From Escherichia phage WPEC2, in sequence record PV691511.1: DNA of 64,000 nt. One strand, given 5' to 3'. Position numbers and translations under genes: made by a program. How positions within the stretch are numbered: position 1 is the stretch's first letter; every line of letters starts with the position of its first letter. Positions 9,953-11,850 of this stretch are shown piece by piece. The notes beneath the pieces were generated by a model. The model saw only the letters and a list, made by a program, of their open reading frames with translations, searched no databases and was not told the DNA's origin.

Positions 9953-11299
9953 TTATCGTTTGGAGAGGAATTGTCTTCCCATAATCTTACCGTTCTTTAC
10001 AGCGGTCCCATCGTGTCCATTATAGTCCCAAGTTCCATCAATATTACGCAAGAAGCTATCACGAACAGTGTAGGCTTTACCGTTCTCTACTTTACTTTCT
10101 TCCACAATGATCGCCATAACAAGCTTATTTTCAATTTCGGTAGTAACCGATTCTTTGATACCCTCTGTAACTTCACGATCATATTGGATATAAACTCGCT
10201 CCTCGGTCACTTGCACGTCTACCACATTTTTAAATGTGTATGTCTGTTGTGTAGTGTAGAGGACACGAACAACACTCTTCTTACCTACTGGCGGCTTCTG
10301 ACGACGCTTGCGGTAACGTGGAGACGGGTTAAGTTTAATATAACCTACAATATCTGATCCATCTCCAGAGTGGCTCCAATAAAACGTCTCTGCCAAACCT
10401 TTTCCTTGGTCCCCATTTCGAAAAAGAACATTAACAGGACCATCACAAGGGCGTCTACCTCCAATGTGGGCTTGGTATTTTGCTGTTCTTGGGAGAACAA
10501 AATATTCTTCAATCTGCCATTCACTATCGTATTTCTCCCATTCAAAGTGGTTGGCTTTACATACTTCTAAAACACCATTTTTGTAACGGACTTGAACAAA
10601 GTCTTCACAAGGTTGAATACCTGTATTAGGAATATAAGTAGGCTCTGTATCTTCTGGTTCAAAAGTCTCTTTTTGTTCTTCCATATCTTCCACTTTTCTT
10701 ACATGCTTAGTATAAAACATATCTTTAAACTCCTGTGCTTCAACCTCAACTGCAAACTCATGTTCTCTAACAGACGGAGGCACAAGGCTTCCACACTCAA
10801 GATGTAGAGCATCCAGACCTGCCATTTTATCGTAAAAGATAACTTTTCGATACTTCTTACCGTCTTCTGGAATAGCAGGGTCTACTCGTTTAAGACGGGA
10901 AGCATCGCTTTTAGTCCAAAAACTCTTCCCTGTTGTATTATTGAAAGTAGTAATCATTTCTTCAATTTCTTCTTCGGAAAGGTTACTAGTGTCTGTGTAA
11001 ACATCTTCAATTTTTAGCATTTTAGTTTTCTTAAGAATTAAATCTAGCATTGCATCTCCTGTAAAACGCAGTTCATTATCTCCCACTGTCGGATCTCCAG
11101 TAAATTCATTGGTCCCAACTGTGTGACAGATGTATGGAAAATTTGTGCAACCGTGTAAAAGAGCATATTCTCCTGTAAGTTTAGGATCTGTCTCTTTGGT
11201 CCAACCATATGCAATTTCAATAGCTTTGCAAAGCCTATCAAACAAGCCGCGATTGTTTGCCGCTGTTACCAAATCTTGCTTATGTGCATATACATTCAT
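9953..11299 (-). CDS. hypothetical protein (448 aa)
   Basis: ORF track; no confident motif. Confidence 0.4.
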   Translation of the reverse strand: MNVYAHKQDLVTAANNRGLFDRLCKAIEIAYGWTKETDPKLTGEYALLHGCTNFPYICHTVGTNEFTGDPTVGDNELRFTGDAMLDLILKKTKMLKIEDVYTDTSNLSEEEIEEMITTFNNTTGKSFWTKSDASRLKRVDPAIPEDGKKYRKVIFYDKMAGLDALHLECGSLVPPSVREHEFAVEVEAQEFKDMFYTKHVRKVEDMEEQKETFEPEDTEPTYIPNTGIQPCEDFVQVRYKNGVLEVCKANHFEWEKYDSEWQIEEYFVLPRTAKYQAHIGGRRPCDGPVNVLFRNGDQGKGLAETFYWSHSGDGSDIVGYIKLNPSPRYRKRRQKPPVGKKSVVRVLYTTQQTYTFKNVVDVQVTEERVYIQYDREVTEGIKESVTTEIENKLVMAIIVEESKVENGKAYTVRDSFLRNIDGTWDYNGHDGTAVKNGKIMGRQFLSKR

Positions 11300-11850
11300 A
11301 ATAATCCTCCTCGTTTTATTGCAATAGATGCCCTAGGCTCTGCGATACCAGTGGCGTATAAATATGGATGACCTTGTGGAGAAGTTCTCATCCCAAACGA
11401 ACCTAATTCTAACCCATACATATCTTCCACGTCAAGACCAATATCTGTCTCTATGATCTGAGTTTGAACTTTGTAATACGTCCAAAAGAAATAGCGCATA
11501 GTTTCGGCATATTCTTTGACGGATGCTCCTGGGTAAAACTCAATAATTTCCAACTTTAAGAAAATGTTAAAATGAACATCATCCAACTCTTCCTCTGTTC
11601 GGTAGCAAGGTGTTAGAGCCATATAAGGATGATCTGTTGAAAATTCAAACCCATCTTTCTCCATCTGGAGGAAAGACTGCTCTGCACTGGCTACGTAGAA
11701 CTTACCATTAGGATGCCCCAAGGGGCGATCCTCTTTACCTTCTGGTAATGTATATGCAAGGATATCCGCATCTACAAGATAAGGGACTTCTAACATCTCC
11801 GCAAACCGCCCATAGTAATCAATAGCTTGAGCAATAACAGCTACGTTCAT
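11296..11850 (-). CDS. hypothetical protein with weak class II aminoacyl-tRNA synthetase-like motifs
   Basis: PCYRTEE...EFY resembles class II motif 2 and GLELGSFGMR resembles motif 3; too short for a full catalytic core. Confidence 0.3.
   Translation of the reverse strand: MNVAVIAQAIDYYGRFAEMLEVPYLVDADILAYTLPEGKEDRPLGHPNGKFYVASAEQSFLQMEKDGFEFSTDHPYMALTPCYRTEEELDDVHFNIFLKLEIIEFYPGASVKEYAETMRYFFWTYYKVQTQIIETDIGLDVEDMYGLELGSFGMRTSPQGHPYLYATGIAEPRASIAIKRGGLL

Follow-up and report, generated by a model that had tools for sequence, protein, structure and literature searches.

The stretch analyzed here (the window) comprises 64,000 nucleotides of Escherichia phage WPEC2 (PV691511.1), a Stephanstirmvirinae-type coliphage (phAPEC8/phi92 group), and our subject is a pair of overlapping minus-strand genes within it. 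The downstream gene (11296..11850, minus strand, ATG start, stop codon included) encodes a protein of 184 residues, referred to below as the core, which is a minimal and apparently seryl-tRNA synthetase (SerRS)-derived class II domain. The upstream gene (11847..12098, minus strand; PHROG 6408 match) encodes a small, all-helical, MazG/HisE-like protein of 83 residues, the partner, which is a probable ortholog of the anti-defense protein Atd1. The TGA stop codon of the partner and the ATG start codon of the core share an ATGA overlap (11847..11850, minus strand; tcat on the plus strand), which suggests translational coupling. An earlier reading made from the sequence alone (the sequence-only reading) had described a 184-residue protein with class II aminoacyl-tRNA synthetase-like motifs, lying next to MazG-like and helicase genes. 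The open reading frame (ORF) is as described, with PCYRTEE at residues 81-87, LEIIEFY at 100-106 and GLELGSFGMR at 146-155; the 83-residue MazG/HisE-like gene lies upstream of it and is abutted by the gene for a UvrD-like helicase (12099..13691, minus strand).

No match to the core was found in Pfam or NCBIfam, even at an E value of 10, and a single-sequence phmmer search of the Protein Data Bank (PDB) gave only a chance match to a P450; the full-length core matches PHROG 4806 ('histidyl tRNA synthetase') at an E value of 1.8e-68. The profile of an alignment of 38 core-family sequences (alignment A1), searched against the PDB, returned Aquifex SerRS first (E value 3.9e-5), then many further SerRS chains, and no chain of histidyl-tRNA synthetase (HisRS). 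Aligned with hhalign to the E. coli enzymes, A1 matched SerRS with a probability of 90.8% (E value 1.2e-6; core residues 14-130 on SerRS residues 186-323) versus 1% for HisRS, and the 'histidyl' label of the PHROG is therefore unsupported. The core carries SerRS-like motifs (TPC[FY]RxE, [ST]AE and G[ST]GLA), and its nearest relative is SerRS of the bacterial type rather than the methanogen-type enzyme, AsnRS/AspRS, LysRS or HisRS; descent from SerRS is, in our judgment, very likely. The competing identification as HisRS or a fragment of it, made by PHROG 4806 and by pharokka-derived GenBank labels, is left with next to no probability, given the alignment probabilities, the PDB search, the lack of an anticodon-binding domain and the SerRS-like motifs, and we regard it as effectively refuted at the sequence level.

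The AlphaFold2 model of the core (A1 as input; predicted local distance difference test score [pLDDT] 95.3, predicted template modeling score [pTM] 0.89) is an antiparallel beta-sheet flanked by helices, which is the class II fold. Every Foldseek match of the model in the PDB was the catalytic domain of a class II synthetase (PylRS, SerRS or PheRS); E values ran from about 3e-9 to 5e-8, and TM-scores on the query from 0.62 to 0.76. The structure comparison that the sequence-only reading had proposed thus returned class II synthetase folds alone, and no unrelated fold was seen; on the strength of the model we hold the class II fold of the core to be practically certain.

The predicted active site can be followed along the chain, and its conservation was evaluated in 195 core-family sequences taken from clusters at 50% identity or less. 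The motif 1 region (residues 14-26, GRFAEMLEVPYLV; 11773..11811, minus strand) contains G..VPYLV, to be compared with GYSENYVPYLV at residues 189-199 of E. coli SerRS, and its conserved Pro23 is present in 190 of the 195 members. In the 'TxE' loop (residues 52-60, YVASAEQSF; 11671..11697, minus strand) the hhalign alignment places S55 on SerRS T237 and E57 on E239. Motif 2 (residues 78-101, ALTPCYRTEEELDDVHFNIFLKLE; 11548..11619, minus strand), which has a short acidic loop, is aligned by the same method to TPCFRSE...HQFDKVE of SerRS, with R84 equivalent to R268, E86 to E270, F97 to F287, K99 to K289 and E101 to E291. The motif 2 assignment of the sequence-only reading is supported by this alignment, but GLELGSFGMR, which it had taken for motif 3, is part of the strands preceding motif 3 (residues 140-155, DVEDMYGLELGSFGMR, with D140, E148 and S151; 11386..11433, minus strand) and corresponds to the ATP/Mg strand. 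The true motif 3 (residues 163-177, YLYATGIAEPRASIA, with T167 and R173; 11320..11364, minus strand) includes the stretch YATGIAEPRAS and aligns locally to residues 387-401 of SerRS (LNGSGLAVGRTLVAV), T167 being the equivalent of SerRS S391.

Four of these positions (S55, E57, R84 and F97) are identical in all 195 sequences, and a further ten (P81, C82, K99, E101, D140, G150, S151, T167, P172 and R173) are kept in 194; E148 is found in 193, and position 86 is E or D in 187. In structures of SerRS with bound adenylate, three elements make up the binding site of the seryl moiety: the TxE loop, which contacts the amino group of the amino acid, the Glu of motif 2 and the Thr/Ser of motif 3. The positions of R84 and R173 are those of the class II 'arginine tweezers', the motif 2 and motif 3 arginines by which the adenylate is gripped; in SerRS and HisRS the Glu two residues past the motif 2 Arg touches adenine (PMC5919687). 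Because the active site is complete and invariant, we consider it probable, judging by these residues, that the core is an active enzyme capable of real adenylate chemistry, and its amino acid is most probably serine.

The features with which SerRS binds tRNA, on the other hand, have been lost. The core begins at motif 1, so that its alignment starts at SerRS residue 186 with the N-terminal helical arm absent, and its model has no long helical hairpin; at the other end the chain stops 9 residues past motif 3, with no anticodon-binding domain. In SerRS the helical arm is a critical recognition element for the variable arm of tRNA-Ser, and the motif 2 loop enters the acceptor stem upon tRNA binding (PMC9427863). 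In the core family that loop is shorter (median 12 residues, against 18 in E. coli SerRS) and negatively charged (median net charge -3, against about +1), and the family is acidic overall (median isoelectric point [pI] of 5.0; 4.5 for the window copy). We do not class the core as a SerRS, because the tRNA-binding arm, a defining feature of SerRS, is absent.

The comparison with bacterial-type SerRS (E. coli SerS, T. thermophilus 1SER and Aquifex 2DQ3), which has the coiled-coil tRNA arm that the core lacks, also shows the extent of the reduction: the catalytic domain has 184 residues rather than approximately 330, about 140 residues of loops and insertions being gone. Further differences from SerRS are a set of invariant residues particular to the core family (Q58, F60, D90 and H93), a distribution confined to phages and an obligate MazG-like partner. 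The family is also shorter, at 170-200 residues, than the tRNA-independent class II paralogs (Bll0957/3MEY, AsnA, EpmA/GenX and HisZ), which have approximately 275-330, and the partners of the Bll0957, EpmA and HisZ types (a carrier protein, EF-P and HisG, respectively) were not found as conserved neighbors of the core. We accordingly rejected an amino acid:carrier-protein ligase of the Bll0957 type, which would imply descent from methanogen-type SerRS (no carrier-protein gene is a conserved neighbor, and the core is closest to bacterial-type SerRS), and a HisZ-type paralog (neither HisG nor any other third gene is conserved nearby, and the catalytic residues are invariant). Engineered class II cores of approximately 120-180 residues with motif 2, and with or without motif 3 (the Urzymes of the Carter laboratory), reportedly suffice for amino-acid activation; these are laboratory constructs, whereas the core is natural, widespread and strongly conserved, and it keeps motif 3. 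The shortest chains among the structural matches have 205-252 residues, and no natural catalytic domain of the class II synthetase type that we found there is as short as the core family, at 170-200 residues; with its complete and conserved active site the core offers a natural test of the minimum protein needed for amino-acid activation.

Small size is a property of the whole family. The homologs are all short (56 relatives of 162-261 residues), and an exhaustive profile search yielded 1,591 clusters (counted at 50% identity) at an E value of 1e-3 or less, 1,026 of them at 1e-30 or less, nearly all of 170-200 residues. The sequence-only reading had left open a truncated or a minimal ligase; the second term holds, and a truncated pseudogene is rejected, since length and active site are kept throughout what is a stand-alone family. 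The family is spread across jumbo and other large phages and is essentially phage-restricted: cellular homologs were found at only 15 loci in approximately 185,000 species genomes, all of them in metagenome-assembled genomes or uncultured bins, where the cellular context was uninformative. Database labels for this large family of about 1,600 clusters are inconsistent, and GenBank product names ('histidyl tRNA synthetase', 'putative seryl-tRNA synthetase' and 'hypothetical protein') conflict even among identical phages. A literature search found no study of the mini-synthetase itself, which was known previously only as inconsistent automated annotation; its minimal architecture, its SerRS descent and its obligate link to an Atd1-type enzyme have apparently not been described before.

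Several observations on individual members and records may be added here. Differing product names are carried by sister records with identical sequence, namely those of WPEC1, WPEC4 and WPEC6 and those of Campylobacter phages B15 and C3; several phAPEC8-like genomes are filed as 'Campylobacter' or 'Acinetobacter' phages, and these may be mislabelled hosts. In phiCbK-like phages the core has an N-terminal domain resembling the C-terminal domain of the RNA polymerase alpha subunit (alpha-CTD; PF03118, E value 3e-6), as in Caulobacter phage CcrColossus gp133 (L003, 3743-4597) and in loci L077 and L083. Four further cores (P0070, P0074, P0080 and P0132) have C-terminal tails that are Cys-rich, zinc-ribbon-like or basic.

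The partner was characterized from an alignment of 26 free-standing and fused copies (alignment A2). Ten positions are invariant in A2 (Y4, H5, K19, E22, E23, E26, E42, L43, D45 and G48) and six are nearly so (D29, at 90% or more, and A49, R75, F77, G80 and R82). On this conservation, residues 19-49 (K19, E22, E23, E26, D29...E42, L43, D45, G48 and A49; 11952..12044, minus strand) form a putative metal-binding motif, whose E22/E23/E26...E42/D45 pattern we take to be the EExxE...ExxD site of the MazG type; the acidic site is followed by a basic C-terminal tail. The AlphaFold2 model (pLDDT 90.7) is a small four-helix bundle, and its top Foldseek matches are HisE (2a7w, probability 0.96; 1yvw, 0.82) and HisIE (6j2l), with MazG proteins also matched (2yxh, 3cra, 7yh5 and the 83-residue 1vmg), all at E values of 0.9 or more. 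Sequence searches were less informative. The Pfam family PRA-PH scores 17.0 bits against the partner, below its cut-off of 21.3, and is likewise sub-threshold in 15 of the 26 members; a profile search of the PDB gave only coiled-coil noise and nothing relevant, and hhalign comparisons with E. coli MazG and HisIE were insignificant. It is reasonable to regard the partner as a MazG/HisE-like pyrophosphohydrolase, an assignment not proven by sequence statistics.

The same MazG-like module occurs in other arrangements. At one locus (L103, 330-836) it is duplicated in tandem within one ORF (residues 19-90 and 105-169), a layout resembling that of the two-domain cellular MazG. In jumbo-phage contigs (L043, 5471-6433; L046, 4169-4999; L051, 3890-4855; L066, 4064-5014) it is joined to an N-terminal 'HDH' domain of about 190 residues with invariant H40, W42, H56-D57-H58 and H130; this domain looks cupin-like and matches PHROG 4784 only, no sequence match having been found in Pfam or the PDB. 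In T4-like Acinetobacter phages (L002, 3303-3977, which is AbTZA1 gp227; L026, L035 and L045) the module is followed by about 125 further C-terminal residues that match nothing in Pfam or PHROGs, and some GenBank records name the gene 'MazG-like NTP pyrophosphohydrolase'.

The principal new finding is the association of the core with this module. When the 83-residue sequence was used as a phmmer query, it matched, over residues 2-82, the extensions of longer core members (10 representatives, E values of 8e-15 to 7e-25); the module is fused to the C terminus of the core in nine of these (P0120, P0133, P0148, P0149, P0167, P0168, P0170, P0189 and P0193) and to the N terminus in one (P0190). We then evaluated linkage by hidden Markov model scans in 5 GenBank loci and in 80 loci from IMG/VR, the cores of the latter sharing 29-82% identity with that of the window. 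The module lies on the strand of the core and within 5 kb of it at 83 of these 85 phage loci (immediately upstream at 52, immediately downstream at 8, fused at 5 and one or two genes away at 18). It is also present at 13 of the 15 genome-bin loci (fused in 3 of the 13), and among GenBank phages the two genes are distributed almost alike (272 records have the core and 268 the module, and the counts per genus agree). Only L020 and L021 are without a detectable module within 5 kb on either side, and the core at L021 ends in an unrelated tail of about 50 residues.

Nothing beyond the pair is conserved to this degree. Clustering approximately 1,500 neighboring ORFs from the 85 loci gave no third shared gene; the next most frequent neighbor family, a Certrevirus nucleotidyltransferase (NTase), is present at 9 of the 85, and the annotated neighborhoods of AbTZA1, CcrColossus, MaMV-DH01 and CR3 are mutually unrelated. 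Transfer RNA genes lie within 5 kb of the pair at 20 of 99 loci, in about 10 of which the pair is inside a tRNA array; some arrays do include tRNA-Ser, but it is not particularly enriched among the neighboring tRNAs. Because gene order varies while fusion recurs, we see the partnership as functional and probably physical, and there is very little doubt in our minds that the core is functionally coupled to the 83-residue protein.

The coupling gains significance from what has been reported for one member of the partner family. Ho et al. (bioRxiv 10.1101/2022.06.09.495361) screened ORFs of fewer than 200 residues flanking phage NTases (about 8 ORFs per NTase) and described Atd1 (anti-TIR defense 1) of Pectobacterium phage PcCB7V, a MazG-like ppGpp pyrophosphatase. 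Purified Atd1 used ppGpp as substrate (Km approximately 50 uM) but not ribonucleoside triphosphates (rNTPs) or c-di-GMP, and it reduced cellular (p)ppGpp, eased TIR-STING and retron-TIR toxicity and was reported to weaken TIR-dependent abortive infection (10.1101/2022.06.09.495361). Table S1 of that work gives the PcCB7V NTase as QQG33502.1 (10.1101/2022.06.09.495361). In the genome record (MW367417.1) this NTase is followed by an ORF of 166 residues, QQG33500.1, two inserted genes and QQG33497.1. The last, of 198 residues and annotated 'seryl-tRNA synthetase', is the core in PcCB7V, and QQG33500.1 (86 residues, 'phosphoribosyl-ATP pyrophosphatase') is the ortholog of the 83-residue protein of the window, which shares about 49% identity with the CR3 copy, itself 93% identical to QQG33500.1. 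Because QQG33500.1 is two genes from the NTase and no other MazG-like ORF was found within four genes of it, Atd1 is very probably QQG33500.1, and hence this module; the identification follows from the anchor NTase and the design of the screen.

QQG33500.1, the probable Atd1, and the window partner, as syntenic orthologs, are alike in their acidic motif, similar length and place near the mini-SerRS; in the window, the helicase and the pair are not separated by an NTase. The PcCB7V genes (L086, 140-6862, MW367417.1) form a cluster with a CCA tRNA nucleotidyltransferase, a peptidyl-tRNA hydrolase and an MNT-like NTase, and one of the two genes inserted there between module and core is on the opposite strand. 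Atd1 was published as a stand-alone gene near an NTase, and the linked synthetase-like gene is unmentioned. The near-obligate pairing and recurrent fusion imply a conserved module of which the published anti-defense protein makes up just one half, and which links aminoacyl-adenylate chemistry with alarmone and abortive-infection biology.

Taken together, our preferred reading, which we put forward tentatively and place slightly short of an even chance, is that a catalytically competent, reduced SerRS descendant and its MazG-like partner form a phage module against host starvation or alarmone signaling. The core would form seryl-adenylate from serine and ATP, and without the tRNA arm and the long basic motif 2 loop would not serve as an ordinary SerRS; with the translationally coupled pyrophosphohydrolase it would make up a two-protein module, in which the MazG-like half removes (p)ppGpp and the core acts on the same circuit. 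A role for the pair in alarmone, stringent-response or defense evasion is plausible in itself, but somewhat on the doubtful side. We can envisage three ways in which the core might act. It might acylate free tRNA 3' ends, removing the trigger of RelA; for this speak the tRNA genes near the pair, the tRNA 3'-end-maintenance neighborhood in Certrevirus and the independently gained alpha-CTD-like, Cys-rich and basic appendages, and against it the acidic motif 2 loop and low pI. It might instead spend its adenylate on nucleotide chemistry, with products of the Ap4A or ApppGpp kind, for which class II synthetases are known. Finally, it might be a ligase that joins serine to a nucleotide or to some metabolite, the nucleoside monophosphate (NMP) coming from the MazG-like half; this option fits the operon of replication and nucleotide genes in the window (with the UvrD-like helicase and NrdD/NrdG).

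A more specific version of this proposal, which we consider unlikely as formulated, is that the pair is an unrecognized two-enzyme phage counter-measure acting on ribose 3' ends or alarmones. The MazG-like half would remove the 3'-pyrophosphate of (p)ppGpp and perhaps also that of tRNA CCA ends pyrophosphorylated by toxSAS/CapRel-type defenses. The core would transfer the seryl group of its adenylate to a non-canonical acceptor, for example by identity-independent acylation of tRNA 3' ends, hiding them from RelA and from 3'-end-modifying toxins; alternatively it would adenylylate ppGpp to compounds of the ApppGpp type. If true, this would make the core the smallest natural class II aminoacyl-tRNA synthetase-type enzyme, with a new acceptor specificity.

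One alternative to a module against host signaling is that the core is, as several GenBank records label it, a genuine though miniature SerRS that charges host or phage tRNA-Ser for translation, with the MazG-like neighbor an independent auxiliary. The profile and fold comparisons, in both of which SerRS is the nearest relative, agree with this, as do the conservation of all catalytic and serine-binding equivalents, the occurrence of the family in large, tRNA-rich phages (at times within arrays that include tRNA-Ser) and the nucleic-acid-binding-like appendages gained by some members. We nevertheless find it quite unlikely: the N-terminal arm for tRNA-Ser is absent, the motif 2 loop has been cut from 18 to 12 residues and is negatively charged (-3), tRNA-Ser is not particularly enriched nearby, and the near-obligate linkage and repeated MazG-like fusion would be left unexplained. 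A second alternative, of the same low probability, takes the nucleotide-gene setting at face value and makes the pair a nucleotide-modifying or biosynthetic ligase system, in which the MazG-like half would convert (d)NTP to (d)NMP (compare MazZ and the T4 dCTPase) and the core would spend ATP on joining serine, or a comparable small amino acid, to that nucleotide, to DNA or to another metabolite. Such a pathway is at odds with the lack of a third conserved gene (a transferase, carrier or decarboxylase), with a neighborhood that is not kept across lineages and with a family that covers phage groups of very different DNA chemistries, and the sole experimental datum on the partner's ortholog is hydrolysis of ppGpp without hydrolysis of rNTPs.

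It is also conceivable, by analogy with HisZ and the HisRS-like domain of GCN2, that the core is a non-catalytic sensor, which would bind an amino acid, ATP or uncharged tRNA and thereby switch the MazG-like hydrolase. The constant pairing would be natural for a regulator and its enzyme, but the residues of adenylate chemistry, including the tweezer arginines and the Glu/Ser pair for Mg and ATP, are essentially invariant in the approximately 195 sequences, which is unexpected for a domain that only binds, and Atd1 on its own was reported to work both in vitro and in vivo with no core present. We therefore regard a sensor as very unlikely.

The remaining features of the locus concern the transcription unit and its surroundings. 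The core gene overlaps its downstream neighbor as it does its upstream one, through a second ATGA (11296..11299, minus strand; tcat on the plus strand) that joins the TGA stop codon of the core to the ATG of an ORF of 448 residues (9953..11299, minus strand), a sign of translational coupling here too. This ORF matches PHROG 15930 ('ribonucleotide reductase') at an E value of 6e-101, has no Pfam match and is present only in close relatives (4 of the 85 loci); the label looks unreliable. Between it and nrdD lies a terminator-like hairpin found by consensus scan only (9927..9947, minus strand), with a perfect, GC-rich 9-bp stem and a T-rich tail; T-rich tails are present on both strands, giving it the form of a bidirectional terminator, and it is the probable end of the transcription unit containing the core-partner pair. 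Promoter-like sites (consensus matches only) are found upstream of the pair at approximately 14.7-14.9 kb. Elsewhere in the window, near its start, five tRNA genes (Gly-TCC, Gln-TTG, Pro-TGG, Ile-GAT and Met-CAT) form an array at positions 122-688 on the plus strand. The region 9900-13700 is 100% identical to the corresponding sequence of Escherichia phages WPEC1, WPEC4 and WPEC6, and in WPEC1 (L089, 8870-10844) a Macro-domain protein and a HAD-like hydrolase, for which anti-defense or nucleotide-salvage functions are possible, are annotated a few genes beyond NrdD/NrdG.

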